A stretch of 64,000 bases of DNA from Heterodontus francisci (taxonomy: Eukaryota), in assembly GCF_036365525.1 (NCBI RefSeq), contig NC_090385.1:25338119-25402118 (forward strand). Direction: 5' to 3'. The notes beneath the pieces are model-generated. The model searched no databases. It saw only the letters and a program-made list of their open reading frames with translations, and had not been told where the DNA came from. A program made the position numbers and the translations under genes. Shown here piece by piece: positions 13,986-45,288 of this stretch (positions are counted from its first letter, which is position 1; each line of letters opens with the position of its first letter).

Positions 13986-14062
13986 TTAGGCAGAGATATC
14001 CAAATACAGAAGTTGGATCTTGCTAGGAATGCCAGATCATTACAACTGATCATCCCTGTGTT

Positions 14063-14151
14063 CCAATAAAAAGTCATTGACCTGAAATGTTAACTGTTTT
14101 GCTTTCCACAGATGCTGCCTGACCTGATTATTTGCAGCATTTTCTGTTATT
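14063..14151 (+). mobile_element. Short Penelope-like terminal fragment with degenerate hammerhead-like motif
   Basis: AAAGTCATTGACCTGAAATGTTAAC...CAGATGCTGCC..., flanked by ATCCC(T/A)GTGTT at 14052-14062 and 14152-14162. Confidence 0.6.
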
Positions 14152-14909
14152 ATCCCAGTGTTTATTTGATTATAGCCAGTTATCGTTCTGAAATTACTAG
14201 TCCTCCAAACACATCCCTAGACACTTACCACAGGGGTGTTCATAAAGCTCACAATTGCATTAAAATTTCACACCGCTGCCATGAAAAGATCAGACACATT
14301 GCCATCTGATTAAATTAAAATCTCCCACATGCCATTTATTTGCACAAGAAACACTAGTTTGCCAACTGATAAATATGGGAATAAATAAAAAAATGCTACT
14401 GGAAAATAAAGTTGAAAGCATGGCAAAGAAATAAAGATCAAAACGCAGTTTCAAAAAGTGCACTTTCATAAAGGCACATATCCCACATAAAATTTTGGGA
14501 ACTCGATATTCTACTCACCCAAAATACAGGAACAAAAATTTTCATTTCAAAGCATAAACATTAACCCATTTACACATTAAAAAACTTGCAACTGCACACT
14601 ACAGTCAACTTTACCATCAACAACTTAAACATCACTGACATTAAATTCAGTAATTTGATGCTTTGAAAACAAACCTCTCATGCATCCTGTCACATGCCTA
14701 CGGTGTAACCATGATATGGCAGTATCGGCAAAGCATAGATTTTGCCAGGCTAGGAGGTTTACAAACCTCCGAATGCACACAGTTGTCAACTGTACAGTTT
14801 TTTTTTAATGCATCACCTATATGCTCTTGTCAATTAAAACTGCCAGTCTATCTTTATCTATTCCTAGGAAGCATTATTATTGATGGTTATTTCCCCACAT
14901 TTACATACC

Positions 14910-15590
14910 CAGAGAGACTGGGGGTATATGTATATAAATCATTGAAGGTGGCAGGGCAGGTTGAGAAAGTGGTTAAAAAGACATACAAGATCCTGAGCTT
15001 TATAAATAGAGGCTGAGTGTAGAAAAGCAAGGAAATTATGAACTCAACTGGAGTAGTGTCTCCAATTCTGGGCACCACACTTTAGGAAGGATGTGAAGAC
15101 TTCAGAGAGGGTGCAGTAAAAATTCACAAGAATGGTTCCAAGGATGACGGACTTCAATTACATGGATAGATTGGATAAGCTGGGGTTATTCTCCTTCAAG
15201 ATGGTTGAGAAGATTTAATAGAGGTGTTCAAAATCATGAGGGGTCTGAACAGAGTAGAGAAGGAGAAACTGTTCCCATTGGCAGAAGGGTCAAGAACCAG
15301 AAGAAACCAATTTAAGGCGACTGGCAGAAGAACCAATGCAACACAAGGAAAAAACTTTTCTACCCAGCAAGGGGTTAGGATCCGGAATGCACTGCCTGAG
15401 AGTGTGATGGAGGAAGCTTCAATCATGGCTTTCAAAAGGGAAACGGTTAAGTATCTTGAGAAAATATTTGCAGGGCAACAGCGAGAGGGCGGGGGAAATG
15501 GTACTAGCTGCGTTGTACTTGCAGAGAGCAGGCACGGACAATGGGCTGAATGGCCTCCTTTTGTGCTGTAACTGTTTTATGATTCTACAT
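14910..15590 (+). mobile_element. CR1 LINE 3' fragment
   Basis: SLKVAGQVEKVVKK...SFINRG and VFKIMRGL.RVEKEKLFPL, then CR1 tail. Similar short CR1 3' pieces at ~7300-7555 (+), ~9545-9920 (-), ~21150-21435 (+) and ~28028-28740 (-). Confidence 0.8.
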
Positions 15591-15753
15591 CTTTCTACTC
15601 CTCCAGGATCATTCAAATCTTTTTCCACGATGACTAACCAGCCCTCAAACCTTATTCCCCCACTATTCCACCCTCTTTTCCAATACCAAGCATAAGGATC
15701 TGATGGACTATGTGTCTCCAAAACTGACACCATTGGTACCATTGGCACCATTG

Positions 15754-15896
15754 AGTCAGTTCCAAAGAAGGGTCACTGACCCGAAACGTTAACTCTGCTT
15801 CTCTTTCCACAGATGCTGCCAGACCTGCTGAGTGATTCCAGCATTTCTTGTTTTTGTTTCAGATTTCCAGCATCCGCAATATTTTGCTTTTATTAT
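15754..15896 (+). mobile_element. Short Penelope-like terminal fragment with hammerhead-like motif
   Basis: CAGTT-CCAAAGA-A-GGGTCACTGACCC-GAAACGTT-AACT, flanked by ACCATTGGTAC at 15729-15739 and 15897-15907. Confidence 0.7.
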
Positions 15897-16231
15897 ACCA
15901 TTGGTACAGCTGTTGGCCAATGTGTTTCTCTCCTCTCCCCCTATAACTCATTAGCCACGGCCTCAAGCCACTATACAATCAGCTAAATTCCATTCTCTCC
16001 CTCAACACTCCACAAGCTCATGCTTTCCACAAAATTGATCTTCTGCTTTCTCAATCCTATCCCCACCCAACTCCAGACAACTCAGGTACTTTTCCCAGTC
16101 ACTCCCTATGCCGGTATTGTTTACAGTCTCCTTTTGCTCAGGCACTTTGCCTCTCCTTTTCAAAGCTGCCATTATTAACCCCCTCTTCAAAATGACTGCC
16201 TTTAACTTCTCTCCAAACACTGGCTAATCTC

Positions 16232-16352
16232 TAAAATAAAAGTAAAATACTGCGGATGCTGGATGAAAGGTCACTGACCTGAAATGTTAACTCTGTTTCT
16301 CTCTCCACAGATGCTGCCAGACCTGCTGCCTATTTCCAGCACTATTTTTATT
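16232..16352 (+). mobile_element. Short Penelope-like fragment with inverted 5' piece
   Basis: Antisense tail piece joined to GATGA-A-AGGTCACTGACCT-GAAATGTT-AACT. 13-bp TSD ACTGGCTAATCTC at 16219-16231 and 16353-16365. Confidence 0.7.
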
Positions 16353-16934
16353 ACTGGCTAATCTCGAACCTCCATCCCTTAAATGTGCTATCAACCTCTC
16401 AGCCCTGTGCCTACCTCTCAATGCTCTATTTAAATTCCTTGTCCTGCTCAAAATCATCAACAATACCTTCTATGACTGTGACCAAGTGCATTATCTCCTT
16501 TTGTTCTCAACCTTTCTACAGTGTTCACAGTTCACCATGCCACCCTCCTCCTCTGCCTCTCATCCATGGTCCAGCTCTATCAGTCTGCCATTACATAGTT
16601 CCACTCCTACCTGCCCAATTCAACTAGCATATTTCCAGCAACAGCTTCTCCTCTTGCCACCCAAGTCGCCTTCTCCAAAGATCAATCTATGGCAGAAATC
16701 AATGGCCAAGTTGATCTATGCAGTTGATGAGCTACTAACTTCCAAGTCATGGGTTTAACGAAATTTACATTTTATCAAAAAAACACTGCACATTTTCATA
16801 GCACGATATACATGGAATGCTATTCCCCTGCATCATGGTGTACAAAAGCCAAGAAATTTTCCTTCATACAGTTCCAATATATAATATTACACCATACAAG
16901 AAAACACAAACAGCAGGTTAGATTTAAATGTTTT

Positions 16935-17360
16935 AAAAAAAGACTTGCATTTATACAGCATCTTTCAAAAGAAGTGCTTTCAAGCCAATTAATTACTTTT
17001 GAAGTACAGGCACGGTTGTAATGTAGGAAACACAACAGCCAATTTGCCCACCATGCAGTAGTGATAACAACCAGATAATATGTTTTGGCAATATTGATTG
17101 AGGGATAAATATTGGCCAGGACAATGGGAATCTTCCCTACTTTTGTTCAAAATAATGCCATGGGATCTTTTACGACCATCTCAGAGAGAAGACAGGGCCC
17201 TCGATTTAATGTTTTATCTGAAAGATGGCACCTCCAACAGTGCAACACTCCCTCAGTATTACACTGGATTGTCAGTCTTGCTTTTTGTGCTCAAGTGAGA
17301 CTTGAACCCACAACCTTCTGACTCAAAGGCAAGCGTGCTACCAACTGAGCTGCGGCTAAC
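16935..17360 (-). mobile_element. DeuSINE-like SINE
   Basis: Reverse complement of the 10620-11055 family. Partial copies also at ~38420-38625 and ~46545-46670. Confidence 0.65.
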
Positions 17361-17794
17361 CTATACATTTTTACCTAAACTTAGCAAAATTGTCCAGGCT
17401 TTATGAATGACCGCTGGCACCTGAATTTCTCAATTACAGTATTACAGCTCACCCAAAGGTACTCATTAGTCAAGATATATTCCATCTTCACACAGTTAAG
17501 TGTTGTTCAAACCAAAATACCCATATTACATCTCTAATATGTAGGTGGAAATTTATGACAAATAGAAATTATTTCTTTGCACACTTGAAACAAATTCATT
17601 AACCTTCTGAGAACAGGACACTGCACTGCTTTTAGCTGGCAGCTTACCTCACAAATCTAAATTCCAAAACATGAACCCAGCCATAAATTCCACACAGTGA
17701 CAATGAATAGCGTCCCAGTCAGCACCCTCATGGCTCAGTAATTTAATGTGAACAACTAAGCCGTGTGTGGAGCCGGAGGACATAGGTTAGGCTT

Positions 17795-18262
17795 TAAATG
17801 ATTACTTTTCATCTGTGTTCACTATGGAGAAGGACGAAGTAGGTGTGGAGATCAGGGAGGGGGATTGTGATATACTCGAACATATTAGCATTGAAAGGGA
17901 GGAAGTATTAGCTGTTTCAGCAGGCTTAAAAGTAGATAAATCCCCAGACCCAGATGAGATGTATCCCAGGCTGTTATGTGAGGCAAGGGAGGAGATAGCA
18001 GGCACTCTGACACAAATTTTCAAATCCTCTCTGGCCACAGGAGAGGTACCAGAGAACTGGAGGACAGGGGACAGCAAATGTGGTGCCATTATTCAAGAAT
18101 GGAATTTAATCCTGAGAAGTGTGAGGTAATGCACTTTGGGGAGGACTAACAGGGCAAGGGAATATACAATGGTTGGTAGGACCCTATGGAAGTACAGAGG
18201 GACCTTGGTGTACTTGTCCATAGATCAATTAAGGCGGCAGCACAGGTAGATAAGGTGGCTAA
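17795..18262 (+). mobile_element. CR1 LINE internal fragment
   Basis: LKVDKSPDPDEMYPRLL.EAREEIAG.L..IFKSSLATGEVPENWRT. Confidence 0.8.
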
Positions 18263-18296
18263 AGATGTATTTATTTTAATTCAATTTACTTCTAAA

Positions 18297-20621
18297 AACT
18301 CTGGACAAGCTGACAAAGGCCGTCGAGTCCTTCGAGACGAGTAAAGATCCCGGAAACGACGGCTTACCGGTCGAGTTGCACTCGGCCCTGTGGGACTGGG
18401 TCGGTCCGGACCTGCTGGAAGTAAACAAGAGTATGCCCCTGGCCGGCAGCATGTCAGAATCCATGAGGAAAGGCATCATCACCCTCATCTACAAGCGGAA
18501 GGGGGAAGAGGGCAGAAATCAGAAATTGGCGGCCCATCTCACTGCTTAATGTTGACTACAAGATTCTGTCCAAAGTCATAGCCAGTCAAGTCAAGTCTGC
18601 TCTGGAGTCGGTGATCCACCTTGATCAGACCTGTACTGTACCCGGCAGGAAGATCTCCGATAGTCTCGCGCTACTCAGGGATACAATCACCTATGTGCGG
18701 GACAGGAGGGTGGACACTTGCCTCATCAGCCTGGACCAGGAGAAGGCTTTTGACAGGATATCGCACACCTACATGATGGACGTGCTTTCCAAAATGGGGT
18801 TTGGGGAGGGAATCTGCAACTGGATCAAACTGCTCCACACAAACATCAGTAGCGCAGTCTCAATCAATGGGTGGGAATCAGAAAGTTTCCCGATCCAATC
18901 TGGAGTCAGACAGGGCTGTCCTCTCTCCCCAGCCTTGTTTGTTTGCTGTATTGAACCCTTTGCTGAGTCTATTAAGAAGGATGCGAGCATAAGAGGGGTG
19001 ACACTCAGGTCAAAACCTCCCTGTACATGGACGACGTCGCCGTCTTCTGCTTGGATCCGCTGTCCGTGCACAGACTGATGAGCATCTGCGACCAGTTCGA
19101 ACTGGCCTCGGGAGCCAAAGTTAACCACGGCAAGAGTGAGGCTATGTTCTTTGGGAACTGGGCTGACCGATCCTTTGTCCCCTTCACCATCAGGTCAGAC
19201 TACCTGAAGGTGCTGGGGATATGGTTCGGAAGGGCCGGGGCGTGCACCAAAACCTGGGAGGAGCGAGTAGCCAAGGTACAGCACAACTGAGAATGTGGGG
19301 GCAGCGATCTCTCTCCATTGTGGGTAAGAACCTGGTCATCAGGTGCGAGGCGCTCACGTTGTTGCTGTACCTGGCGCAGGTCTGGCCCGTACCCCACTCC
19401 TGCGCTGTGGCAGTCACCCAAACCATTTTTCACTTCATCTGGGGATCCAAAATGGACCGGGTCTGGAGGGACACGATGTTCAAACCTCTGGATAAGGGCA
19501 GGAAAAATGTACCCAACGTGGCCCTCATCCTGATGACCACCTTCGTGTGCGGCTGCATCAAGCTGTGTGTAGACCTCCAGTACGCAAACTCCAAGTATCA
19601 CTATGTGCTGAGGTTCTATCTGTCCCCGGTGTTGCGAAGGATGGGCCTGGCCAGATTGCCGCAGAACGCTCCATGCAGTTGGACCGTGCCGTACCATCTA
19701 GCCTTCGTGGAGCAGTTTCTGCAGGAAAGCACCTCTGACCACCGATCCATCAGGCAGTGGTCTGCACGGAATGTCCTCAAGGCCCTACGGGGAAAGGAGA
19801 CGGTGGATCCTGTCGGATGGTTCCCCGAGCAGACCGCCAAAGTCATTTGGCGGAATGCCTCATCACCAGAACTTTCAAACAGGCACCAAGATGCAGCTTG
19901 GCTGGTGGTGAGAAGAGCCCTCCCCATCAGATCCTTCCTGCACGCCCGAAGTCTCGCCCCCTCCGCACAATGCCCCCGTGGTGGCTGTGATGGGGAAGAG
20001 ACGGTTGCCCACCTCCTCCTGGAATGTGTCTTTGCAAAGCAGGTGTGGAAAGAGATGCAGTGATTTTTGTCGAGGTTCATCCCAAGCAACTCTGTAACAC
20101 AGGAGTCTGTGCTCTACGGGCTGTTTCCAGGGACGCACACCGAGATAAACATCAACTGCTGCTGGAGGACTATCAATTCGGTGAAAGACGCCCTTTGGTC
20201 TGCCCGAAACTTACTGGTCTTCCAGCGCAAAGAGATGTCCACGACTGAATGTTGCAGACTGGCACATTCCAAGGTCCAGGACTACGTGCTGAGGGACGCA
20301 CTAAAGCTTGAGGCAGCCGCAGCAAAGGCTCAATGGGGAAAGACCACTGTGTAAGGTCCCCCCACCAAGCTGAACTGAGGGGCTGGATCCATGGGAAACC
20401 CCTCGAACTGTATTGGGAAATTTTTCATTTGCTGTAAAATGTAAAAATGCATCTGGCACGACAATGAAATGGAAGGGTTGTGAGGCAACTCATGATTGTA
20501 TAGAAGGAAACTGACTGCCTTTGCACTGTTTGTATTTTTTGACTTGGTGCTGTTTTAAACGGTTTGGTAATGTGTTTTTACAGATTTTTTTGAATAAAGT
20601 ATATTTTGGAAATTTAAAAAA
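18297..20621 (+). mobile_element. 5'-truncated Tx1/L1-clade non-LTR retrotransposon (ORF2 frameshifted)
   Basis: RT motifs LDQEKAFDR, GVRQGCPLSP and YMDDV; C-terminal CPRGGCDGEETVAHLLLEC knuckle. AATAAA at 20593 and A-rich tail. 9-bp TSD ACTTCTAAA at 18288-18296 and 20622-20630. Confidence 0.88.
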
Positions 20622-20637
20622 ACTTCTAAATATTTAA

Positions 20638-20973
20638 AAGTAAAATACTGCGGATGCTGGAAATCTGAAATAAAAACAAGAAATGCTGGAACCACTCAGC
20701 AGGTCTGGCAGCATCTGTGGAAAGAGAAGCAGAGTTAACGTTTCGGGTCAGTGACCCTTCTTTGGAATTGACAAATATTAGAAATGTCACAGGTTATAAG
20801 CAGGTGAGGTGGGGGTGGGGCAAGAGCCCACCCCCACCTCACCTGCTTATAATCTGTGACATTTCTAATATGTCAGTTCCGAACAAGGGTCACTGACCCG
20901 AAACGTTAACTCTGCTTCTCTTTCCACAGATGCTGCCAGATCTGCTGAGTGGTTCCAGCATTTCTTGTTTTTA
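20638..20973. mobile_element. Palindromic Penelope-like insertion with two hammerhead-like motifs
   Basis: ~150-bp inverted arms (20669-~20819 and ~20827-20975). 14-bp direct repeat TTCTAAATATTTAA at 20624-20637 and 20974-20987. Confidence 0.75.
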
Positions 20974-21790
20974 TTCTAAATATTTAAGTTAACCGGGAGA
21001 CCTTTAAAAATGGCTTCACAGCCTGCACACAGGCAGCTGTGCCATTGCCTGAGACAGACAGCCCACCTCCTCCACATGATCAGTGGGCAGCCCACCCTGC
21101 AGATGCAAATGAGTTGCCACACACAAGATTCGGGGAGAGACCAAGACTAGGGGATAGTTTAAAAATAAGGAGTCTCCTATTTAAGATAGAGATTAGGAGA
21201 ACTTTTTTCTCTTAGAGGGTCGCAAGTCTGTGGAACTCTCTTCCCTGGAGAGCAGTGAAGGCAGGGTCATTAAAGGTTTAAGGCAGAGGGAGACAGATTC
21301 TTGACAAAGAAGTCTAAGGATATCAAAGGTAGGGAGGAAAGTGGAGTTGAGTCCAAAATCAAATCAGCCATGATCTTACAGAATCATAGAGCAGGCTCGA
21401 GGGGCCAAATAGCCTACCCCGCTTCTAGTTCGTAAATTATCTTGATGCTTTGATAAATATGAACACGCTGTAAATTTCCACCTCCTTTGCCTTTCAATGG
21501 AAATTCCCAACCTCATCAAGGGAGGAGTCTGCTGGACAGAAACATGACTGAGAGCACATAGACAAGTCTGAAAGTAACTTTCACACGGCAGTCAGTGTCT
21601 CCGGATAATGAAGGCACAGGTATTAAGCTGGAGCTGCCCGTGCCCAGAGGGAAGTGGGGGGCCGGTGCTGGACACTGGGAGGGAGAGAGAGAGAGATTGC
21701 TGCTAAGCGGGGCCCGGGCCGACTCGCCACTCACTCAAAGACTGACCTTCCCTCACTCTCGCCCAACGTCCCCATTTCAAGGTCACTCAC

Positions 21791-21922
21791 CTTACGGTGT
21801 TTGTCAGCGCGATGCCTGGAGTTCATCAGGATATGGGCCGAACTAGCAGGCTGCAGGAAGAAGGCAAGCCGGCGCCTCTGCAGATGAAGCCGACAACTCA
21901 CAGAAAGCAAGAGCGCCGCCAT
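21791..21922 (-). CDS. ABCB7: ABCB7 coding exon 1 (mitochondrial ABC transporter, presequence region)
   Basis: AAG-ATG-GCG start. Encodes MAALLLSVSCRLHLQRRRLAFFLQPASSAHILMNSRHRADKHRK, Arg-rich and acid-poor like a mitochondrial presequence. Ends at a phase-0 AAG|GTGAGT donor in a CpG-richer patch. Head-to-head with UPRT as in other vertebrates. Confidence 0.8.
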
Positions 21923-22020
21923 CTTCACCCCGCCCCACGGTATTGTGGGAGCTCCAGAATCACGTAACCGGATCACAATGACGTCAGCCCTTCCACCCAA
22001 ATACTGTCCCAGGAGTGCAG
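21915..22020 (-). promoter_or_regulatory. ABCB7 proximal promoter/5' region: YY1-type motif, GC box, CRE
   Basis: GCCGCCATCTT (YY1 consensus) at 21915-21925 overlapping the ATG, CCCCGCCCC at 21928-21936, and a perfect TGACGTCA CRE/ATF palindrome at 21979-21986. Confidence 0.6.
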
Positions 22021-22985
22021 CAAATATACTAATAACACTCAGTGTTATTACTGCCTGCAATAATATTCAACATTATTACTGCCTACAATAATAGCATTAT
22101 CACCGCCTGCAGTAATGTTCAGTATAATTACTGCATGCAATAGTAGCATTATCACTGCTTGCAATAACACTCAGCATTATTACTACCTGAGCAATACTCA
22201 GCAGGATTAATGCCTTCAACAACAGTCAAAGCTATTACTCTCTGCAACAATACTCAGCATTATCACAGCTTGCAACAATACTCAGCATTATTACTTCCAG
22301 TCATGCTCATCATTATTACTGCCCGCAACGATACTCAGCATTACCACCGTCTGCAATAATAGTCAGCATTATTACTTGCTGCAACAATACACAGCATTAT
22401 TACTGCGTGCAATAATTCTTGCCATTATTACTCTATGTAATAATACATGGCATCATTACTTCCTGCAATAATATTTGCCATCATTACTGCCTGCAATAAT
22501 AGCTGGCATCATTACTCTCTGCAATAATACTCAGCATTTTCACACTCCAAAACAATGCTTGGCATCATAACTGCCTACATAAATACTCAGCATTATTATT
22601 CTCTGAAATAATACTCAGTATTATTACTGCTTGCAACATGCTCAGCATTATTACTCTCTCCAATAAGACTCAGACCATTATTAGAGTCTGCAACAATACT
22701 TGGAGAATTGTTATTGTATGCAATAATACCCTGAGCAATATTACTGTCTGCAACAATATGCAGAGCAATATCACTGTCTGCAATAATATTCAGAGCCATA
22801 TTACTGTCTGCAATAATACACTGAGTAAAATTACTGTCTGCAATAATATTGGGAGCATTATTACTCTCTTCAATAATACTCGGAGTATTATTACTGTGTG
22901 CAATAGTACTCGAAGCAATATACTGTCCACAATAATACTTGGAGCAATATTACTGCATTCAATAATATTCGGAGCAATACCACTG

Positions 22986-23420
22986 ACTGGAATTTAACGT
23001 TGAGGCAATAGCCCCGCCCACTGACTGAAAAGTCAGAGGCGAGCCTGCCTCTGCTAGGCCTGGAAGCCACGCTGTTATTTTGGCCAGGATTTTATGTGGC
23101 CCCCTGAGGTGGGGATGGAGGCGGGGGGCATAGAATATTGTGATGGGTGGTGGGGATCATGGGTGGAGGGCCCGTCACCTCTCCATCACCAAGCGATCTT
23201 CCCGGGGAATGGATAGGCCGCCGATGGCCTTCCCACCCAAAGGCCAATTGAGGCCCTTAAATGGCCTATTAACAGCCAATTAAGGGCCTCTTCCTGTTGC
23301 ATGGGGCCTTACCAGTGATGGGGGTGGGAGGACACCTTGTAATATGAGGCGTTATCCCTTTGGGCTTGTGGGGCGGGGTGCGGTACCCCTCCTCTATGGG
23401 CAATCTGTGGCTTCTGAGGG
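22986..23420. mobile_element. Harbinger-type non-autonomous element fragment
   Basis: Starts (G)ACTGGAATTT and shares GGCCAATTGAGGCCCTTAA...AAGGGCCTC with 26614-28026 and 61439-61710. Confidence 0.55.
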
Positions 23421-23454
23421 TATTATTATCTGCAATAATACTCAATGCAATATT

Positions 23455-23802
23455 CCTTCTTTGGCCTCCTTATCTCGAGAGACAATGGATACGCGCCTGG
23501 AGGTGGTCAGTGGTTTGTGAAGCAGCGCCTGGAGTGGCTATAAAGGCCAATTCTAGAGTGACAGGCTCTTCCACAGGTGCTGCAGAGAAATTTGTTTGTC
23601 GGGGCTGTTACACAGTTGGCTCTCCCCTTGCGCCTCTGTCTTTTTTCCTGCCAACTACTAAGTCTCTTCGACTCGCCACACTTTAGCCCCGTCTTTATGG
23701 CTGCCCGACAGCTCTGGCGAACGCTGGCAACTGACTCCCACGACTTGTGATCAATGTCACAGGATTTCATGTCCCGTTTGCAGACGTCTTTAAAGCGGAG
23801 AC
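23455..23802 (-). mobile_element. RTE-clade LINE 3' fragment inserted into the minisatellite
   Basis: ORF end ...CSTCGRACHSRIGLYSHSRRCFTNH and GAA-type tail. Confidence 0.85.
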
Positions 23803-28026: not shown

Positions 28027-28242
28027 ATAGAATGGTTACCGCACAGCAGGAGGTTATTCAACCTACTGAGTCCTCTCCGGCTCTCTGCAAGAACAATTCA
28101 GCTAATCCCACTCCACTGGCCTTTCCCCACAGCCCTGCAACTTGTTTTTATTCTTCAAGTGCTTATCCAATTCCCTTTACAAAGCCACAATTGAATCTGC
28201 CTCCATCACACTCTCAGGCAGTGCATTCCAGGACCTGTTTCA

Positions 28243-28949: not shown

Positions 28950-31632
28950 ATGCATAGAGTCACAGAGTCATTTACGGCACAGAAGGAGGCAATCGGCCCA
29001 TCGAGTTCATGCCGGCTCTCAATGGATCAACCCGTTCAGTCCCACTCCCTCGCTCAATCCCCATAGCCCTGCAAGTCTATTTCTTTCAGGTGGCCATCTA
29101 ACTTCCTCTTGAAGTCATTGATCGTCTCCGCTTCCAGCACACTTGTGGGCAGCGAGTTTCAGGTCATTACCACCTGCTGTGTAAAAAGTGCTTCCTCATA
29201 TTCCCCCTGCATCTTTTGCCCAAAACTTTCAATCTGTGTCTCTTAGTCCTTGTGCCATTAGTTAATGGGAAGAGCTTTTCCTTGTCTAACTTATCTAAAC
29301 CTGTCATAATCTTGTATACGTCTTTAAATCTCCCCTCAATCTCCTTTGTTCAAAGGAGAACAAACCCAACTTTTCCAACCTCACCTTGTAACTAAAATCC
29401 TCATCCCTGGAACCATTCTGATAAATCTCCTCTGCACTCTCTCAAGGATCCCTACATCTTTGCTGAAGTGTGGTGACCAGAATTGGACACAAGACTCCAG
29501 TTGGGGCCTAACCAGAGCTTTATAAAAGTTCAGCATAATTTCCCTGCTTTTTGGACAAATGCGATTTAATTAAGGAAAGCCAGCATGGATTTCTTAAGGG
29601 AAAATCATGTTTAATTAAGTTGCTGGATTTTTTGAGGAGGTAACAGAGAGGGTTGATGAGGGCAATGCTGTTGATGTGATGTACATGGACTTTCAAAAGG
29701 CGTTTGATACAGTGGCACACAACAGACTTGTGAGCAAACTTATAGCTCATGGAATAAAAGGGACAGTAGCAACATGGATATGAAATTGGCTGAGTGACAG
29801 GAAACAAAGTGTATTGGTTAATGGATGTTTTTTGGGTTGGAGGAAGGTTTGTAGTGGAGTGCCCCAGGGATCACTGTTGGGACCCTTGCTTTTCCTGATA
29901 TATATTAATGATCTAGACCTTGGTGCACAGGGCACAATTTCAAATTTTACAGATGATACGAAACTCAGAAGCATCGTGAACTGTGAGGAGGATAGTGTAG
30001 AACTTCAAAAGGACATAGACAAGTTGGTGGAATGGGCAGACAGGTGGCAGATGAAGTTCAATGCAGAGAAATGTAAAGTGATTCATTTTGGTAGGAAGAA
30101 CATTGAGAGACAATATAGAATGATGGGTACAATTCTAAAGGGGGTGCAGGAGCAGAGGGACCTGGGTGTATATGTGCATAAGTCATTGAAGGTGGCAGGA
30201 CAGGTTGAGAGAGTGGTTAATAAAGCATACAGTATCCTGAGCTTTATTAATAGGGGCATAGAGTACAAGAGCAAGGAAGTTGTATTGAACTTGTATAAGA
30301 CACTAGTTCAGCCTCAGCTGGAGTATTGCGTCCTATTCTGGGCACCGCACTTTAGGAAAGATGTGAGGGCATTGGAGAGAGTACAGAAAATATTCACGAG
30401 AATGGTTCCAGGGATGAGGAATTTCAGTTATGAAGATGGATTGGAGAAGTTAGGACTGTTTTCCTTGGAGAAGAGAAGGCTGAGAGGTGATTTGATAGAG
30501 GTATTCAAAATCTTGAGGGGTCTGGACAGAGTAGGTAGAGAGAAACTGTTCCCACTTGTGAAAGGATCGAGAATGAGAGGGCACAGATTTAAAGTATTTG
30601 GTAAAAGAAGCAAAAGTGACACGAGGAAAAAATTTTCACGCAGGGAGTGGTTAAGGTCTGGAATGCACGACCCGAGAATGTGGTGGAGGCAGGTTCAATT
30701 GAAGTATTCAAAAGGGAATTAGACAGTTATATGAAAAGGAAGAATGTGCAGGGTTACAGGGAGAAGGCAGGGAATGGAACTGAGGGAGTTGCTCTTTCAG
30801 AGAGACGGTGCGGACACCATAGGCCGAAAGGTCTCCTTCTGCCCTGAACGATTCTGTGATTCTGTGTACTCAATGCCTTTATTTATGAAGCCCAAGATCC
30901 CATATGCCTTACTAACCACTCTCTCAATATGTCCTTCCACCTTCAAAGATCTATGCACATGCACCTTCAGGTCCTTCTGTTCCTGCATACTCTTTAGAAC
31001 CGTGCCATTATCTATATAATGTCTCTTCCTATTCCTTCTGCCAAAATACATCACCTCATACTTGTCAGTATTAAATGCCATCTGCCACCTGTCTGCCCAT
31101 TCTGCTAGCCTATCTATGTTCTGTTGCAGGAGATTCATATCCTCCTCACTGTTTGCCACACCTCCAAGTTTGGTGTAATCAGCAAATTTTGAAAATCTAC
31201 TCTGTATTACAAGATCCAAGTCATTTATATATAACAAAAAAAGCAGTGGTCCCAGCACTGAACCTTGGGGCATCCACTGTCTATCATCCTCCAGTCTGAA
31301 AAAAACAACCATTTATTATGACTCACTGTTTTCTGTCCTTAAGCCAATTTTTAAAAATCCAATTGGACACTGACCCTCCTATTCCATGAGCCTCAATTTT
31401 GTTAACCAGCCTTTTATGTAGTACCTTATCAAATGCTTTCTTAAAATCCATATAAACAGCATCCACTGCATTCCCTTCATTAACCTTCTGTGTTACTTCA
31501 TCAAAAAATTCAACTAGATTGGTCAAGCATGATCTGCCTTTTACAAATCTGAGCTGGCTCTCCTTAATTAACTCAATCTCTCTAAGTGTCTATTGATAAT
31601 TTCCCTGATTATTGTTTCTAAAACCTTACCCT
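28950..31632 (-). mobile_element. Antisense CR1 LINE split by a sense CR1 insertion
   Basis: Halves 28950-29548 and 30865-31632 rejoin as CCCTGCTTTT|GTACTCAATGCC. Minus ORFs contain PQGSVLGPLLFLLYINDL and FADYTKLGG. Confidence 0.85.
29549..30864 (+). mobile_element. CR1 LINE, 5'-truncated, relatively intact RT/C-terminal region
   Basis: 302-aa ORF with GVPQGSLLGPLLFLIYINDL, FTDDTKL, LEYCVLFWAPH and RGDLIEVFKI; (ATTCTGTG) tail. Confidence 0.9.
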
Positions 31633-31639
31633 ATTCTCA

Positions 31640-33855: not shown

Positions 33856-34699
33856 GTAAGTGGCGGGGGTGGGGGGTTGGAGTGGGGGGAGCAAAGTGTG
33901 ACTGCAGACTGAAAAAATGCTGTTGAGATTGGCCTTTCTGCTCGTGCCTGGAGCTTTAGGCCTTCTCTCAACGGGGATAGTGACATAAGGAGGAAAATGA
34001 GTCATTTTTGCCGCTGGTTTTCATGCATCGCTGCTGGAGGTGAAGTGAGAAAGCCGCACACAGCCCTTGACAAATGCATAATCCAGCCAGTCTCTTCCGG
34101 CGTGGAATGCCTAATCATCTCATTGTTGCAAGAGAATGAAATAGCCGCATGGATGTTATCTAAACACGTTTATCCTAGATATAGAAACACAATTCTCTCC
34201 TTTCCAATGCTGGCCTGCATTGTATTTCCAGTACTTCTCGCTTTTTATTGCGGCATTTGCAGTTTTTAATGTTATCTTGTTCCGATTGACCGGTTAGCCA
34301 AACTGGCTGGAGCTCCTGGCAGTCAGGTTGCGCTGTTCATGGGTTTCTCTGTTGGATTTAGTGCAACATTGGAATTTATTCACTTACCTGGGTAGAGAGA
34401 GGTATTTCCCAAAGACTTTCGCTCAATGATGTTCTGCTGTATTAGACGTTGGTGCAAATCACTAGTTTTAAAACAAAATATAAATTCAAGTTCCTTAGGG
34501 GTTTAATTCAGTTTTTGCTTATCTAAAGCTTGGGCATATTTTGATCTAAAAATTGATCTATTATTAGCGCAGTGTTTCATCTGAACGGAGTAGTAATTAA
34601 AACAATTCTCAAATGAGTCATTTTGTTGAGAATGTCATTACATTTGTGCATCCCTCTATTTTTCTCTCCCAATTTTCTGCCATCTGTTTCTGTTCTGCT

Positions 34700-36179: not shown

Positions 36180-37020
36180 ATAATAATTTGCATTTATATA
36201 GCACCTTTAATGTACTAAAAATGTCCCAAGGCACTTTAGGAGTATAATCAAGCAAAAGTTGATGCCGAGCCACATAAAGAGATATTAGGAGAGGTTTCCA
36301 AAAGCTTGGTCAAAGATATAGGTTTTACAGAGCAACTTAAAAGGAGGAGAGAGCAATAGAGAGGCAGAGAACTTGAGGGAGGGGATTCCAGAGCTTAGGG
36401 CTTAGGCAGCTGAAAGCACAGCTGCCAGGGGTGGAGTGTTGAAAATCAAGGATGCACATAGGCCAGAACTGGAGAATTAAAGAGAGCTCAGAGTTGTAGG
36501 TTGAAGGAAGTTACAGAGATAGGGAGGGGCGAGGCCATAGAGAGATTTAAACACAATGGTGAGAATTATAAAATTGGCGCTTTGCTGGACCAGGAGGACA
36601 GGGGTGATGGTTGAACAGGACTTGGTATGAGTTGGGATATGGCCAGCAGTTTTGGATGAGCTCAACTTTATGGAAGGTGGAAGATGGAAGGCCGGGCAGG
36701 AAAGTGTTGGAATAGTCGATCCTGGAGGTAACAAAGGCATGGATGAGGGTTTCAGCAGCGCATGAGCTGAGGCAGGTGCAGAGATGGACGATGTTACTGA
36801 GGTGGATGTAGGCAGTCTTAGTGATGGCGAGGATATGGCGTCAGAAGCTCAGCTCCGGTTCAAATCGGGTGGCAAGCTTGCAAACAGTCCAATTCAACCT
36901 TGGATAGTGGCTGGGGCGGGGGTCGGTGGAGGAATGGAGTCAGTGGCTCGGGAATGGGGTTTGTGTTGGAGACTGAAAATAATGGCTTCAGTCTTCCCAA
37001 TGTTTAACTGGAAATTAAAA
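36180..37020 (-). mobile_element. L2 LINE 3' fragment
   Basis: L2 tail TTGCATTTATATAGCACC and peptide ITPVL...ILTIVFKSLYGLAPPYL. Confidence 0.75.
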
Positions 37021-38752
37021 TCATAACATTGCAGCAATTGTGGTAATGGGCTGATCAGAAACATCACAAGCTAACATTTTCTGGAATTGGCAAGCATGTG
37101 GATGGTGAATTCATAGAAAATCTGTAACAATCTGTGACTGGGATATTCTAATATGTAGGGCAGCCAGCATCATAAAGAGAAAAGACAGGTACCTGAGGTT
37201 TCAGCTGTGTATCCTTGGGCAGAAAATGAGTTCTGAGGAATGACACACATAGAAAAAAACAATAGTCAGTATTTCTCTTCACAGATACTGCCTGATTCTC
37301 TATGTATTTCCAGCATTTACTATTTTTATATAGAATCTCAGCATTTGCAATTTTTTTCCTTTTTAACATTTCAATATGTTTGTTTTGGTGTGCAAGTGCT
37401 CTCAGAGCCAAGGTATAGTAAACTCCACCAGTTTCAATGATACTTTCTGCCTCAACACCACCCCCCCCCCCCCTATTATTACATGAGAATTAATACCGTA
37501 TAGGGCCACTAAAGACCATTATAAATGCAACATTTATACATGACGACCAGGCCTACATATATAAGTAATTGCATCTTGGAAACCATTACTTAACGTATTT
37601 TAATGTTAATAGGATTTCAGTAAAGTGGTTGTGTAAAATATACGTTTAACACTAACCTGAACTGTGTAAAACACGCAGTGGTGTAATAAATATAGGTTTT
37701 TCCCTTCCAAGTTTGGGTTGTGTCTGGAAAGGAAAGAGAACTTTTGTTCTATATAACACTGGATTAGAGTGCTGGTGGTTACAAGTCTGTCATTGGTGCC
37801 AGTAGTGGTAGGACAAAGTTGAATGATAAATTAGATGTTTTACACAAGGAGCATTTTGACACAAAATTACAGTACATTAAAGTCGTTTTTTTTTTCCACA
37901 GTGACTGGGTAAAAATATACTAAATAAGCCTAGTGACACTCTTGTATTTTTTTTAAAAAACCTTTAACAATTTTATCTAGCAATAACTGAAAAGTCTAAC
38001 TGAAATGTAAAACTATTAAATCAAATAGTTAGACCAGATAGAGCTGTCTGAATATTTGTTTTGAATCGGGAGGAATGGTCTTTAGATCAAGGCATACAGG
38101 CTAAAAAAGTTTAACATTTTTCTCACAGTTGTGAGTTCTACAGAAGATCTCAGTAAGGTACAAAACTCCACTTGCGCACCAAATATTTGACCTGAGTTAC
38201 CCCAGAATGTAAGTAAATTACCTAATGCAGGTTTTACAGGTTTTACCATAGTAACAATCTTTAGTTCCAAAATTCTTACCTTGGTTTTGAGAGAACCTTT
38301 ACTATGGTAATCAGTTGAGTTTTTTAGTCACCACAATACATTTTCAGTTTTAGCTATGCCATCTGTGCAATCAGCTTGGTAGTGCAGTGTTGCGGCTAAG
38401 TACTTCATTCCAAGGTGTCAGCCTTGTATCAGTGGCAGCACCTTAGCCTCTGAGCCAGTAGGTCATGAATTCAATGCCTACTCCAGAGACTCAAGCACAT
38501 AATCTAGGCTGGCACATCTGTACAGTACCGAGGGCACTATCAGAAATGCCATCTTTCATATGAAATGTCAAATCCAGGCCCTGTCTTTCATCTTGGATCC
38601 CAAGGCAATAGAAGAGCAGGGGATTTTAACAAGCATCTTAAAGGATGAGACAGAGGCGGAGAGTTTTAGGGAGGGAATTCCACAGTTATGGGCAGTGTTG
38701 CAACATTGGTAGGTATCTCTGATCAGGTTACTTGCGCACTACCTCAACAAGG

Positions 38753-39097
38753 AATGGCACAGTGGCGCAGTGGTTAGCACCGCAGCCTCACAGCTCCAGC
38801 GATCCAGGTTCAATTCTGGGTACTGCCTGTGTGGAGTTTGCAAGTTCTCCCTGTGTCTGCGTGGGTTTCCTCCGGGTGCTCCGGTTTCCTCCCACATGCC
38901 AAAGACTTGCAGGTTGATAGGTTAATTGGCCATTATAAATTGCCCCTAGTATAGGTAGGTGGTAGGGAAATATAGGGACAGGTGGGTAGTGGTAGGAATA
39001 TGGAATTAGTGTAGGATTGGTATAAATGGGTGGTTGATGGTCGGCACAGACTCGGTGGGCCGAAGGGCCTGTTTCAGTGCTGTATCTCTAAACTAAA
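38753..39097 (+). mobile_element. HE1-type V-SINE (UPRT intron 1)
   Basis: Same SINE, with (CTAAA)n tail. Confidence 0.9.
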
Positions 39098-39191
39098 CGA
39101 TCCAGAAGATTTAAAGAGGAGCAAAGATTAACTTAATGAAAGGCATCACGAGGGCTCAAATCCAGCCCAGACTAATAAGTTAAATGTCTCT

Positions 39192-40127
39192 GGGCTGGAC
39201 TTTCATTGTAGAGGTGGGAAACAGGAACCGGGTCTGGTTTTGGGTCAGAAGCCTGCCTCCTGTGGGAAGCTGATTCACATTGCAATTTTCAAATGGGTAA
39301 GCCCATAATTGGTGTGGAAACAGGTTTCCTGTCCTCTTAGAGCCAGTGGGATTGAAAATGGCAGTGGGTCAGATCACAGGGGGAATTTTATGCTCTTCCC
39401 AATGGTGACTTTGGAGACAGGGGGGAGCTTATAATTGGGCGGGATGGTGTGGGGGGGGGGGGGTGCGGGGATCCCTCATTGTGCTGCTGCGGGAATTAGA
39501 CCAGTGGCGGGCAGGCCTGTTGGAGCATGGGGAGCATGCCAAGCAAACCCGTGCAGGTTGCTTACTGGCTGGGGGGGGTGGTCACTCATTAAAAGGCATT
39601 CAGTGCCAGATTGAGGGACCTGGCATTGAGAAAGGGGGGCCCGCTGAGCACCACCCACCTGCCCTTGCTGCTGACCCCTCTACAACCCTCTCTCCTATTA
39701 TGAAACCCACCCTGTGAAACCCTTCCCGCTGTGACTTACAGGTGGCCTTGAGTGAGTCCAGTACCAGCAGCAGCCATCGTCTCCGCAGTGGCACTGTTCA
39801 GTTAAAGAGCTGCCGGCCTCCGTATTGAAGGAAACTAATTTCTTTTGCACTTTCTGGAATATCAATATGGAACTGTTTTGAACTGTTTTGTAATGTACTT
39901 TTACAGATTTTTATGAATAAAGTATATTTTTGGAAAAGAAATCCAGCCTCTGATTGGCCAGCAGCTCCTAGCAGGCGGGACTTCTGTTGATGGGGTCCTT
40001 GATCCCGGGGACGGCCCTAAGTGCCTAATTGGCACTTGATTCTGAGGGCCTCCCCCCAGAGGAAGTGGCACGGGCTCTCACTGTTGATTAGGCGATGGTC
40101 AACACCCCCATCACCAAATCCCAACCC
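39192..40127. mobile_element. Harbinger-type MITE containing a Tx1-like 3' tail (~39822-39941)
   Basis: Starts GGGCTGGACTTT and ends AAATCCCAACCC. The internal block matches 20503-20612. Confidence 0.6.
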
Positions 40128-40149
40128 AAGTATGGGGCTCAAGTAGACT

Positions 40150-41275
40150 TCCATGGCAGCCATCACTGAGGCTGCTGGTTGTCATGAGGGTGAGATTTGT
40201 CTTTCACTGCACCAGAGGGAAGCAAGATATCACAGGAGAGCTGGAGGCCTGGCACTGGCGCAGGGCAGACCCTTTCTTCATCGATGCCGACCTGGATCTA
40301 ATGCTGGAGGCTGTGAGGGAGAGGAGGGAGGGTGGCAGGAGGAGGTCAGGGCACCTCTCTGTTCAATGTTACTCCCTCTGCCCTGTCTTCCTCCTCCTCG
40401 CTTAGCTCCTGCACCTCCCCTGATGAACTGTCTTCTTCCAAGGCCTCACTGTCCTCTAAGGTCCATACCTCTCTGGGTAAAGGGGGCCCCCCTTTCTCAA
40501 TGCCAGGTCCTTCATTCAGGCACTGAATGCCTTTTAATGAGAGACCCCCCCCCCCCCCCACCCCACCAGCCGCCGCCTCCACCCCCAGAGCAACAGTGCA
40601 GCAGACTACCACAATGACCGAGACCATTGCCAGAGGGTATTGGAGGGTGCCACTCGACCGATCCAGGCACGGGAATGAAACTCAAAAGCCTGTTCGATGG
40701 TTGGTCTGCTGGGCTGGTAGCATTGGTTGCATTGCCTCTGTGTCCCTGTCTGAGGCTTCCATAAAGGTGTCAGTAGCTATCTCCTCAAGGGATTTCCCTT
40801 GTCCCCTTGGATCCATCCATGCATTTTGGGGGATGGAGTGAAGCACTGAGGCAGCCTGGATTGGCAGAGGATGAAGGAGTCATGGCAGCTGTCAGGAAAG
40901 CAAGCGCACGCATAGCAGTTGGATGTTGAGGGAACGGAAACCCTTCCTGTTGATGGATCTCACTGGCTGGTCACTGGGTACCTTGATGGCCACAAGGATG
41001 CAAGCGATGATGTCCTGCACCTGGGGGAATCCAGCGATGCAGGCTGAACCCAATGCCCTTTGTCCCTGCGCAGGCCCACCTGTGCCAAAGTGGGTGTAGT
41101 TCCTTCTGAAAATGGCATCCGTGAACTGCCAACTGCAAGATGCCACCTAGGTCCACAGCTGATCGCTGAAACGACCCAGTTGCATAGAAGCTCAAGGCGA
41201 CGGAGACCTTGATGGCTGCAGGTAGGAGATTGCCATGGGGACCGTCAGGCCTCAGGTCATCGTCGATTAGATTCT
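40150..41275. mobile_element. PIF/Harbinger relic: Myb/SANT-like fragment (+) and transposase fragment (-, ~40880-41275)
   Basis: Minus strand: LPAAIKVSVALSFYATGSFQ and IAGFPQVQDIIACILVAIKVP...INRKGFRSLNIQLLC (HARBI1-like). Plus strand: PFFIDADLDLMLEAVRERRE. Confidence 0.8.
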
Positions 41276-41611
41276 AAGGTCGGAGCCAAGGCATATTGTT
41301 GGACCAGAGTGGAAGGTGCTTTACTCCCCAGTAAAGAATGGTCAACTACAGATACTTGATTGTGACACTGGCTGCCCAAAAATGTGAGTGTTCCATTTCC
41401 TTACACTAATAGCCCTCATGTTGATGAGCTCAATATCCTATAAAATGGTGCATTTTTTTTTGAATGGAGCTTAAAATATCTTAAGACTTTTACTTTCTGA
41501 GATAGTTATTTTACGTTTGTGAAGGGTTAAATGGTTGGACCAAAATACCTGACCATTTTGAAGGTTTTTGTCCATTACTAAATAGGCTGTTTTTTTCCCT
41601 TTCATCTCCAG

Positions 41612-41654
41612 AACAACGAGCAGAGGGGACTTCGTATTTTGTGCTGATCGTTTG
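41612..41654 (+). CDS. UPRT: UPRT exon 2
   Basis: CAG acceptor and GTGAGT donor; 43 nt; (K)TTSRGDFVFCADRL. Confidence 0.95.
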
Positions 41655-42009
41655 GTGAGTAGCAACATAAACATATCATTAGTTCTGTGCTTTTAATTTG
41701 TTGAACCATCAAAACTCTTCCTTGATCGGAGTTCTTACGAGAAAGGAAAGGTGAGTGGGAAGGGAGAGGAAGGTAGAGTGCGGTGGGGCTTATGGGAATG
41801 ATTTTAGAGTGTTTCAAATGGTTACCACCCTTTTAAAAAATAATTAAGAACTGTACTTACATTTGACACATTTCTCTTTTGGAAAAGAAATGGACATTGT
41901 TGCTTAAATTATTTTTATTGCCCAGTGAAAGGATAATATTTTCTAAATTTGGGATACATATGTGCAGGACAAAGTCAAAATTCCTTCACCTGTGAATATT
42001 GTATTACAG

Positions 42010-42079
42010 ATCAGACTGGTGGTTGAAGAAGGACTGAACCAGCTGCCATACACAGAATGTACAGTCACAACCCCTACAG
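42010..42079 (+). CDS. UPRT: UPRT exon 3
   Basis: CAG acceptor and GTTAGA donor; 70 nt; IRLVVEEGLNQLPYTECTVTTPT(G). Confidence 0.95.
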
Positions 42080-44390
42080 GTTAGATATAAGCAAAATGCA
42101 CGGAATTGAGACGTGACCATAATTAGGCTGCTTCACTACTATATCTGTGATATTAGAGAATCCTAAATGTTTTGTTATGTAGATGCCATTTTGAAAGTTG
42201 CTGATTAAAAGGGATATGGCACTTAACAAAGTTCTTCTTTGTGTTTACTAATAATTTAACGTTTTTAAAGTAAGATGGGTGAGGTAACTGTCAGCAATTA
42301 GGCAGCCCTCCATTTGTAAATGAGTTTCACCGCTTTGCCAAACACTTTAAGCTGATGACCAAACTTGACCAAATACCTTGAAGAGAATCAGAATCATTAT
42401 ATTCTTAGAAATCGAAGGGGTAATTTTGATGATGATAGTGTATATCGGGCAATATTAGATCAGCCGCCTAGTATTTATATATAATCCCGATTTTCTTTTC
42501 ATCGAGGTCGGGAGAGATGTAAACAACCATCTGATCTGAAAATGCCTATTTTACACTTTTTCTCAGTCAAAATGACACCCAAATTGTTCAAAGGGATCAC
42601 AGCAGACAGATGTAGGGCCTCACGGTCTCAAGGGTAACAAATGAAAAATGGCTAGGCTTCCCACTCTTGATTGTTCCCCTTAGACTAAACTATACACAGC
42701 CAGACACCAGGCTTCAAAACTAGAGAGAACACGGGCTAAATTTCCTGAGTTCCAGCTGGCAGTGAGGTACCTCACCCATTATTAGCACATAAGGAAAAAT
42801 CTCTGGTGCATCGCTTGTGATTTTCCATCCCTTGTTGTTGAATTTTCTGGTATACGATGGTGACATGCGAGGTACCTTGCCGAGGCGCGGATTTGGACAA
42901 TTTAGAGGTGAGCACTTTTCAGGAGTTGCTGGGCCATTGTTTTTTTTTTTTGGGAGCCATGTTAGCTGTTGTGAAAGTTTATGGAAACCACTCAATGATG
43001 TCAGTGTCATGAACAGTATAGTTTCTGTTACGTTTGTATCGAGACTGGAAAAATATCTCCCAAACACTTCAATTACATTTTCTCTTTTATTTTCAGTCCA
43101 TTTCTGCTGATGATTGAAACTACTTTTGTTTAAACTAAGAATTAATATCACAGTCTTGGCTTAGGGGAATTAGTGAGCCTAATAGTGAAATCAACATCAG
43201 CAGATTAAAGGTGAGGATACTTCAGTGATTTCATCACTTAGCAGTGTCCCAGTAAGCTCCTTTGTTTACTCAGTGACTTTATCGAGTGAGTTGCTGAGGC
43301 TCACATACCAGTTTTAATCCACAGTCTGTTCTGAGCTAACTGATGTCAGCTATGGTAGGAACTGGGCCTCAGTACTTGCCACTGAGTGAGGGTAAGATAA
43401 AGCAAAGTTGCTGCTCCTGATCACTCTCCACTTCTGGAACTGTATGTGTTCTGTGGGTAATGTTGTTAGGTGAGAGCAGGATTGGGCTGAGCTGTGAGGC
43501 CCCCACCTGTATTGGAGCAGCCTACCCACACTCAGTCTCAAGGCCTCTTGGCTGAGGTACCAAAAACTGCCTGTGGCCCCCTTCTTAATTACCTCCAGGA
43601 AAGGAGAAGAGTGCCTGATCGATGTCCTCAGCTACTGCCTTGGCTATTTGTTGAACTAGGGAAGAGGGGTGTGTAAAAGCCAGGGTCGCCACTTTCTGAT
43701 CATTAGCCATCCACCTTGCCAGAGGTGACAGAATTAGTTAAAATGGCCCTTGAAATGCCTGCCACTGCTCACTGTTTGGATTGATTGATCATTTTGGCAA
43801 TGAACAGGAGGGCTGCAAACTCGAGCATGAGTTGCCACATTCAAAGAGATGGGGAGAGAACTGGAAGCAAAACAGAACACTGACAACCCTCCCTGACAAA
43901 GCAATGAATGTTACTTAATCATAGCTCCTTTTGAGTTCTTCCTTTAGGAGGCTAGATGGTTAATCTTACTGATGCACTTTTATTTTTAAGTGAGATTGCC
44001 AGTAAACCAAGAGAAATGTAGTCTATTTACAGACCCGTCAGTCATCAGTACTGGTGGACATTGTAGAAATGTTTGAATGTTGGTCTGGTTCTATTCAAGT
44101 CCAGATTGTTGATGCTGCTGTGCCAACAGAACAGACCCTGCAAGGCACTTTTGTTCTTTTGTTTAGTATTTCAGCATGGGAACCAAAGTATGGCCTGGCT
44201 GCACAATGTAAACACAGTAAGTCAGGGTTCACTGAACTCCACATTATCACTGTGCAATGAACTGAGCAAACAATTACCCTGATCAGTAGAGTTTTTATTG
44301 TAGTTTAAAGGGTGGGTAGCTTAGTGGGACAGTACTCAAAATGCAAAATATTCATTCCCTTAGGAGACCCAGAATTTATTTATTTTTAAT

Positions 44391-44727
44391 GGGCGGCACA
44401 GTGGCGCAGTGGTTAGCACCGCAGCCTCACAGCTCCAGCGGCGCGGGTTCAATTCTGGGTACTGCCTGTGTGGAGTTTGCAAGTTCTCCTTGTGTCTGCG
44501 TGGGTTTCCTCCGGGTGCTCCGGTTTCCTCCCACATGCCAAAGACTTGCAGGTTGATAGGTAAATTGGCCATTATAAATTGCCCCTAGTATAGGTAGGTG
44601 GTGGGGAAAGATGTGGTAGGAATATGGAATTAGTGTAGGATTAGTATAAATGGGTGGTTGATGGTCGGCACAGACTCGGTGGGCTGAAGGGCCTGTTTCA
44701 GTGCTGTATCTCTAAACTAAACTAAAC
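44391..44727 (+). mobile_element. HE1-type V-SINE (UPRT intron 3)
   Basis: Same SINE, with (CTAAA)n tail. Confidence 0.9.
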
Positions 44728-44965
44728 TTAAGTCATTCTCCTTTCTTTGAGGAATCGTTTTGAGTTGAAGGGGATTCATCCATTCAGATTGAGACATTTT
44801 TTTATCAAAGTATGCTGAAAGTATGTCTGAGTCAGGGACTGCTTTAAAAAGATACGTCTTGAATCGATTCACTCTCCCTGTGTGTTCCCTTTGCAGAGAG
44901 TGGGTGAGTGACCTGCTGCCAGGCAGATAACAGTTTTCTGCATGAGTCAGCTTTTAGAGGAAGCA

Positions 44966-45061
44966 AAAAATAAAAACAAAGTGCTGGAAATACTCAGCAG
45001 GTCAGGCAGCATCTGTGGAGAGAGAAGAAAAGTTAACCTGTCAGGTCTATGACCTTTCCTC
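44966..45061 (-). mobile_element. Short Penelope-like terminal fragment (UPRT intron 3)
   Basis: Reverse complement reads CTGAGGA-A-AGGTCATAGACCT-GACAGGTT-AACT. 10-bp TSD AGAGGAAGCA at 44956-44965 and 45062-45071. Confidence 0.7.
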
Positions 45062-45288
45062 AGAGGAAGCATTTTAATTTAGAGGTTGAGAATTAAGTGT
45101 TTGTGATTTTTTTGGGGGCTTAGCTTCCTTCCTGTGCCCCACTGAAAATAAGCAGAGGTCAAGCAATGTGGTGTCTACCTGCATGTTCTGAGAATGAGGT
45201 GTGGCATTACGGGTGGGGTGGTGAGGATTGGAAAGAATTTAGACCACTAATGCTATGTTAACCCCGATTAATATTTAATTTTATACAG

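Follow-up and report, generated by a model that had tools for sequence, protein, structure and literature searches.

The window examined here, a stretch of 64,000 nt covering positions 25,338,119-25,402,118 of NC_090385.1 in the 6.0-Gb genome of Heterodontus francisci, holds a series of small insertions that carry a minimal hammerhead-like motif. These insertions are almost certainly the end-pieces of a young, abundant autonomous Penelope-like element (PLE), and their 5' ends pile up at a fixed site. This stop lies about 33 nt before the predicted hammerhead cut; therefore, ribozyme cleavage does not explain it and does not set the 5' end of the short copies (stubs). The stop site is likely the start of the element RNA, and the stubs are probably run-off complementary DNAs (cDNAs) of the first ~100 or ~135 bases of a capped, uncut RNA. 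All element positions (+n or -n) are counted from the predicted cut, with the first base after the cut as +1.

A genome search with one of the insertions (copy B, listed below) finds near-identical copies. Followed upstream, several of the loci (L-numbers denote loci of the same genome retrieved by sequence search) lead through 3' untranslated sequence to the coding sequence of GIY-YIG and reverse transcriptase (RT). L031 presents a near-complete open reading frame (ORF) with one frameshift, and L161 is a natural tandem with a unit of 3,300 bp and its ATG at +140 from the predicted cut. A single ORF encodes the RT, with a YIDD motif, together with a GIY-YIG endonuclease (EN) at the C-terminus, the L031 and L161 copies each being frameshifted; the Pfam matches in L161 (RVT_1, E 3e-6; GIY-YIG, E 1e-3) are both under the gathering scores. 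At 30 loci with an ORF start the tail sequence leads into the ORF, and junctions of the pseudo-long terminal repeat (pLTR) with the ORF are found besides the L161 tandem. The upstream EN and RT, the tail-to-ORF order and the L161 tandem thus identify the motif as part of the pLTR end of an autonomous PLE, 140 nt upstream of the ATG of the tandem unit. The first-pass annotation of the window had suspected a Penelope connection, and L031 and L161 supply the element with RT and GIY-YIG that this connection called for. The optional 30-40-bp tail, the inverted arm and the target-site duplication (TSD) of PLE type are all present in the family. The linker before the EN reads C-x4-C-xx-C, which fits the CX2-5CxxC motif common to Neptune and Nematis (PMC8557442) and points to this type; of the two, Neptune would be the better assignment, judging from a vertebrate survey (10.64898/2026.07.22.740005).

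Some of these loci show features of their own. In L031 (1000-4050) a C2H2 zinc-finger array adjoins the nearly full-length PLE copy. PLE pieces are captured within larger tandem repeats at L006-L008, L016 (C33, ~9.9 Mb) and L186, with a spacing of ~1.4-2.9 kb and 3.5 kb. The L161 unit presents, from -32 to +137, several words resembling 3' splice sites in the interval that separates motif and ATG, the last of them just upstream of the ATG, and an intron at these words could excise both of the RT start sites proposed below.

The abundance of the family was estimated in 1.624 Mb of sequence, made up of the window and 156 stretches of 10 kb each, of which ten flank the window and the rest were chosen blind. 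Profile matches amount to 152 arms in this sample and to none in the reversed sequence, and all genome-wide pattern counts gave 0 control matches; the motif family is therefore not a product of chance. Extrapolation from the 152 arms gives ~560,000 ends genome-wide.

The distribution of 5' ends made from these copies shows a pile-up at the start of helix I, bearing out a preferred 5' end that had been proposed from the window alone. Scoring covered 150 arms. Of these, 90 extend to -27, and half of the 90 (45) end in the interval from -27 to -36, most often at -33/-32. In this interval the stop rate is 5.0% per nt, compared with 0.2-1.3% in seven other bins from +70 to -110. Stop positions come from junction scoring against 28 long copies, which replaced an extended profile that blurred boundaries by ~10 nt. 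Older subfamilies without a long copy in this panel could give false stops; TSD-bounded copies and exact counts in the young subfamily serve as guards. The simple TSD-bounded stubs likewise end at -33/-32. Exact 35-mers number 32,611 over -29 to +6 and 16,305 over -42 to -8 genome-wide, and about half of the young arms continue upstream of the stop site. Junction-type matches, which include some point mutants of longer copies, number 5,164 at -33, 4,904 at -32, 477 at -25 and 742 at +1. In a pattern count read by eye, 64 of 100 listed rows stop at -27 to -35, 25 downstream and 11 upstream, a tally conditional on the leading D of the pattern, which drops copies reaching -90 (the unconditioned anchor count is 29,245).

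These counts bear directly on whether the 5' ends of the stubs arise from hammerhead self-cleavage or from ordinary random 5' truncation. The motif is conserved across subfamilies and 742 exact junction-like matches do fall at +1, as a cleavage origin would have it; yet cleavage predicts starts at +1, and -33 and -32 are each ~7 times commoner. Uniform truncation is rejected as well (p ~1e-17 against the next-highest bin rate). The junction counts thus refute cleavage-defined 5' ends for the bulk of the copies, and we regard cleavage or random truncation as scarcely credible as the general origin of the stubs, although a minority of copies may start at +1.

The sequence at the stop site is TCAGTT, an initiator-like word; in the young subfamily TATAA lies 29 nt upstream of it. 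The -33 junctions are preceded by G in 2,585 of 5,164 cases (50%) and the -32 junctions in 58 of the first 100 rows, as read by eye; the background frequency of G is 0.30-0.39, and at the control position -25 it precedes 39 of 100 junctions by eye (p=0.30). A G at this place is what copying of a cap would leave.

The same element might produce the same pile-up if -33 were an RT pause, a ribonucleoprotein boundary, an uncapped processing site or a 3' splice site. The bases ahead of helix I do look like such a splice site (CAG/TTC after a branch-point-like word), and the intron end in D. virilis maps to helix I in a published account (PMC4209133); long copies often pass the site, and the excess of G is modest. 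However, the upstream sides of the listed junctions share no common sequence, and a spliced upstream exon was rejected as the cause of the pile-up; no GT..AG joint occurs among the 15 of 25 RNA-contig joints shown. A structural block would be expected at the 3' edge of the ribozyme, which the RT meets first, and a pause predicts no extra G. We consider such a cap-independent stop somewhat unlikely, and a capped RNA start the better reading.

Composite and irregular junctions are also found at this site. L060 (oriented 1363-2905) and L064 (1265-2962) each join a piece running from -32/-33 into the ORF with a second stub from -33/-34 to ~+103. In L060 the ORF piece and the stub lie inside one TSD, and a single G, present in neither part, precedes -33; the composites look like template jumps at the RNA 5' end. 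At L234, L231, L223 and L222 one or two repeats or mirror copies of the element's initial 8-13 bases precede the 5' junction, as if the RT had slipped at a template end.

The 3' ends cluster at about +68 (short) and +104 (long), each behind a similar U-rich word, and the interval from +68 to +104 is the PLE tail. In the anole element the tail lies between two internal RT start sites, as demonstrated in vitro (PMC11167929), and by analogy the two 3' ends here would correspond to two such start sites. Head-to-head pairs join one long and one short end in 27 of 30 cases (p=4e-6 against 50%); these 30 were kept from 45 candidate pairings as being at most 100 nt apart or bounded by their own TSD. 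TSDs of 10-15 bp number 41, under a filter favouring at least 10 bp. The one-sided tail has been described before (PMC8557442, PMC3846280), and both strands are extended in anole PLE insertion (PMC11167929); the long/short pairing suggests twin priming.

A mechanism can be proposed on this basis. The pLTR promoter would start a capped RNA at -33/-32, as the start of D. virilis Penelope transcription also lies in the pLTR (PMC8557442, PMC2377424). A protein of the element would nick both target strands 10-15 bp apart, giving rise to the TSDs, and the RT would start internally at +104 and +68. Both nicked strands would then prime, probably one per start site, to give head-to-head arms. An RT starting on the 5'-proximal copy of the start region would run off the end of the RNA and leave stubs of ~100 or 135 nt, while a start on the downstream copy would give the long insertions; sometimes the cap would be copied as an extra G. 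We infer the promoter, the cap and the twin priming from the junctions and pairs described above, and the activity of the ribozyme is predicted. A fuller version can be drawn, in which the capped RNA begins on the first base of helix I and the ribozyme acts as a self-decapping switch that removes the 33-nt leader. All insertions would be twin-primed from the two internal start sites, uncut capped leaders would yield the tens of thousands of strong-stop-like stubs, and copies longer than a unit, in which stops at this site are rare, would come from templates without a 5' end there, possibly unit circles cut and ligated by the ribozyme. This version is speculative and, in our judgment, quite doubtful.

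Several observations weigh against a capped start with twin priming. The TATA-like word differs among subfamilies (TATAA, TAAAA, TCTAA) and is weaker in older ones. The excess of G is small (50-58% against up to 39%), and some of the preceding Gs stem from the opposite arm or from microhomology. Among simple TSD-bounded -33/-32 junctions with extra bases, 7 of 11 rows end in G (with one duplicate locus, and one row with A where the family has C at -34), and four further simple TSD-bounded rows carry no extra base. Where long copies cross the site a second time, 2 of 16 stop, compared with 45 of 90 (p=0.006, for a set picked by best score that includes duplicates), so the copies are not all accounted for by one class of template. 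The long/short asymmetry also finds no explanation in the in vitro work on the anole enzyme, which started at identical sites on the two strands (PMC11167929). The RNA data are assembled contigs, uninformative on starts, and the capped start is putative. In contigs from 4 of 22 runs the depth rises ~7- to 16-fold at the 5' edge of the stubs; contigs cannot show starts and transcribed genomic stubs would look alike, so this step is not used as evidence.

The window itself presents five insertions, as the first-pass annotation had reported, and all six motif copies counted there are present. Their boundaries, and those of the arms, are as follows.
14052-14062: left TSD of insertion A; right copy 14152-14162, 10/11 match, no exact TSD.
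14063-14151, forward strand: insertion A, 89 bp, an old stub from the 5' edge of the motif (-32, with microhomology) to the short end.
15729-15739: exact 11-bp TSD on the left of insertion B, repeated on the right at 15897-15907.
15740-15754: filler of 15 nt at the 5' junction of B, resembling the target site and copied from the target.
15755-15896, forward strand: insertion B element, a stub of the young subfamily that begins at -36 and runs to the long (tail) end; it shares 96.5% identity with the tandem unit.
15758-15794, forward strand: minimal hammerhead-like motif in B; helix I 5' strand at 15758-15761, predicted cut after 15790.
16219-16231: exact 13-bp TSD on the left of insertion C, repeated on the right at 16353-16365.
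16232-16263, reverse strand: inverted arm of C, long-tail end only, 97% over 33 nt.
16262-16352, forward strand: forward arm of C, from -27 to the short end.
20624-20637: exact 14-bp TSD on the left of insertion D, repeated on the right at 20974-20987.
20638-20826, reverse strand: inverted arm of D, from the long end back to ~-90; core G5A.
20827-20973, forward strand: forward arm of D, from ~-83 to the short end; core G8C.
44956-44965: exact 10-bp TSD on the left of insertion E, repeated on the right at 45062-45071.
44966-45061, reverse strand: insertion E, an older stub with a broken GAAA; it runs from -30, where there is microhomology, to the short end.
37229-37362, forward strand: an additional decayed copy, absent from the first list, found as a profile match; its apparent start reads G then AGTT, and no TSD was found.
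~34162-34268, forward strand: a possible very decayed copy, also missed at first; weak (E=0.003), with a 9-bp candidate TSD.

Insertion B as a whole is 15740-15896 with its filler, the element sequence itself starting at 15755; its motif presents, in order, the helix I 5' strand, the core (with U4C and G5A), helix II, GAAA and the CG palindrome. Insertion D, at 20638-20973, consists of two head-to-head arms, the inverted one spanning the TATA-like and initiator-like sites. In A the last bases of the TSD overlap helix I (microhomology), and the core is broken by G5A and G8A. The forward arm of C lacks C3-U4 and the helix I 5' strand. Four of the five insertions had been thought to begin at or near the motif. 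This is correct for A, B and E, but not for C, which opens with the inverted long-tail arm (~32 nt), nor for D, whose arms reach ~83-90 nt upstream of the cut.

The mapping of the motif onto a minimal type I hammerhead is supported by the sampled copies, whose consensus keeps an intact CUGANGA/GAAA core. A strict structural descriptor is satisfied by 21 sampled copies and by none in the reversed control. The window copies are probably inactive, as had been suspected: each of the six carries a core change and none passes the strict descriptor. The Rfam scan of the window gave 21 matches at E<=10, with no hammerhead family among them. Genome-wide, the intact canonical core with U4 is present in 17,983 exact copies, and the youngest subfamily carries U4C (the 32,611 exact copies of the 35-mer from -29 to +6). 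This substitution is reported to lower activity in vitro, while still permitting viroid infectivity (PMC3088659). Helix cells are paired in 89.9% of cases in 70 aligned copies, which are related and decay neutrally. Support from covariation is thin, because only the pair 10.1-11.1 varies repeatedly on both sides (A-U 25, G-U 23, G-C 18); helix I has zero two-sided changes. In the predicted fold of one natural copy both helices I and II form. The U4C change of the most recently amplified subfamily creates a CpG in the catalytic core, and at this CpG copy B and the inverted arm of D have since changed G5 to A.

The stubs had been put forward as a separate non-autonomous retrozyme-like or SINE-like (short interspersed nuclear element) family, that is, a unit of ~100-140 nt transcribed and mobilised in its own right by a Penelope enzyme. 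This proposal is unsupported: the stubs consist of the autonomous element's terminal repeat. It draws on the great number of stubs, with their fixed ends and TSDs, and on the fact that they retain the region just 3' of the putative initiator, where an internal promoter like that of D. virilis Penelope is conceivable (PMC2377424); retrozymes have moreover been proposed to derive from pLTRs (10.64898/2026.07.22.740005). However, the same subfamily sequences occur in short and in long copies, and on a tree of 74 arms the two kinds are intermingled: the labels short and long require 21 changes, the mean after shuffling is 20.5, and 352 of 500 shuffles are as low as the observed count. One short and one long arm are identical over 93 columns. 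There is no sign of a stub-only lineage on this tree, which has just 93 columns, imperfect labels and low resolution, a limit that tempers our own reading too. The 5' junctions vary from copy to copy. In the window the copies lie singly and dispersed, or as head-to-head pairs, and short head-to-tail arrays are absent from it (a genome-wide tandem search was not run); the tandem unit that was found corresponds to the 3.3-kb coding element. The Rfam scan of the window gave no match to tRNA, 5S or SRP (a dedicated A/B-box or tRNA scan was not run). In our reading the stubs are by-products, with no indication that they propagate independently, and we judge a separate family highly improbable.

Elsewhere in the window, decayed RT reading frames of LINE (long interspersed nuclear element) type are found at 11713-13670, 18467-20063 and 29784-31312, their translations having been judged by eye. 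An AT-rich hairpin of 70 bp at 371-441 is possibly a small inverted-repeat element; its matches to microRNA models are weak and far under the gathering score.

Put forward as a new ribozyme mini-element, the finding is ordinary. Its value lies in the roughly half million ends, a large record of PLE insertion intermediates. As we read this record, uncut RNA is the template of most integrated copies, synthesis halts at a fixed position resembling a transcription start, and two RT start sites are used, one per strand. One PLE has been reconstituted in vitro (PMC11167929).

Comparison with known systems places the family. Minimal hammerhead ribozymes (min-HHR) in the pLTRs of metazoan PLEs were described by Cervera and De la Pena in 2014 (PMC4209133). 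The motif shares with them, as presented there, the type I layout, a helix I of 4 bp, an extra base between 9 and 10.1, the palindromic 15.2-16.2 without a real helix III, the pLTR location and the prevalence of dispersed single motifs, attributed in that work to truncated PLEs. It differs in the pair 10.1-11.1 (A-U, G-U or G-C here, nearly always G-C there) and in the U4C of its youngest subfamily; sharks and a 5'-end pile-up at helix I were not met in the available text of that work. With the EN+ PLEs Neptune and Nematis (PMC8557442, PMC3846280) the element shares the order RT then GIY-YIG, the CX2-5CxxC linker, partial tandems, an inverted truncated arm, the one-sided 30-40-bp tail, TSDs, and TATA-like and initiator-like pLTR words. 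Those accounts, as far as available, present 5' truncation without a fixed stop, whereas half of the arms here stop within 10 nt, and the asymmetry of the two ends is counted here (27 of 30). Poseidon PAc of Anolis (Frangieh et al. 2024, PMC11167929) likewise has two internal RT start sites that bound the tail, with its hammerhead lying upstream of these sites; its main template is uncut RNA, and there are no reads at the cut site. However, its start sites are described inside the ORF and its ATG overlaps the ribozyme, whereas both ends lie before the ATG here, and the linker motif indicates a different clade. The metazoan non-LTR retrozymes (PMC7229834, 10.64898/2026.07.22.740005) are also non-coding and pLTR-related, with a type I hammerhead, but they are reported as short head-to-tail repeats that yield circular RNA. 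The stubs, in contrast, are dispersed and TSD-bounded, with no separate lineage.

In LTR retroelements, an RT that starts near the 5' end of the RNA produces a short cDNA of fixed length, the strong-stop DNA. An untemplated G in full-length L1 and SVA insertions has been attributed to the cap (PMC3287187). Both are analogies of working rather than of membership, as the short cDNA here would be target-primed and integrated directly. No fixed 5' stop or PLE twin priming was found in the published listings and passages searched; supplements lay outside the search, and Fig. S2 of PMC11167929 (genomic coverage) could show the step. To judge from the available texts, publications already cover pLTRs with minimal hammerheads, dispersed single motifs, tails, inverted arms and internal RT starts (PMC4209133, PMC11167929, PMC3846280, PMC8557442, PMC2377424, PMC6155905). 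The family is thus real and a further instance of the known PLE/min-HHR type, with a useful mechanistic clue in its ends.

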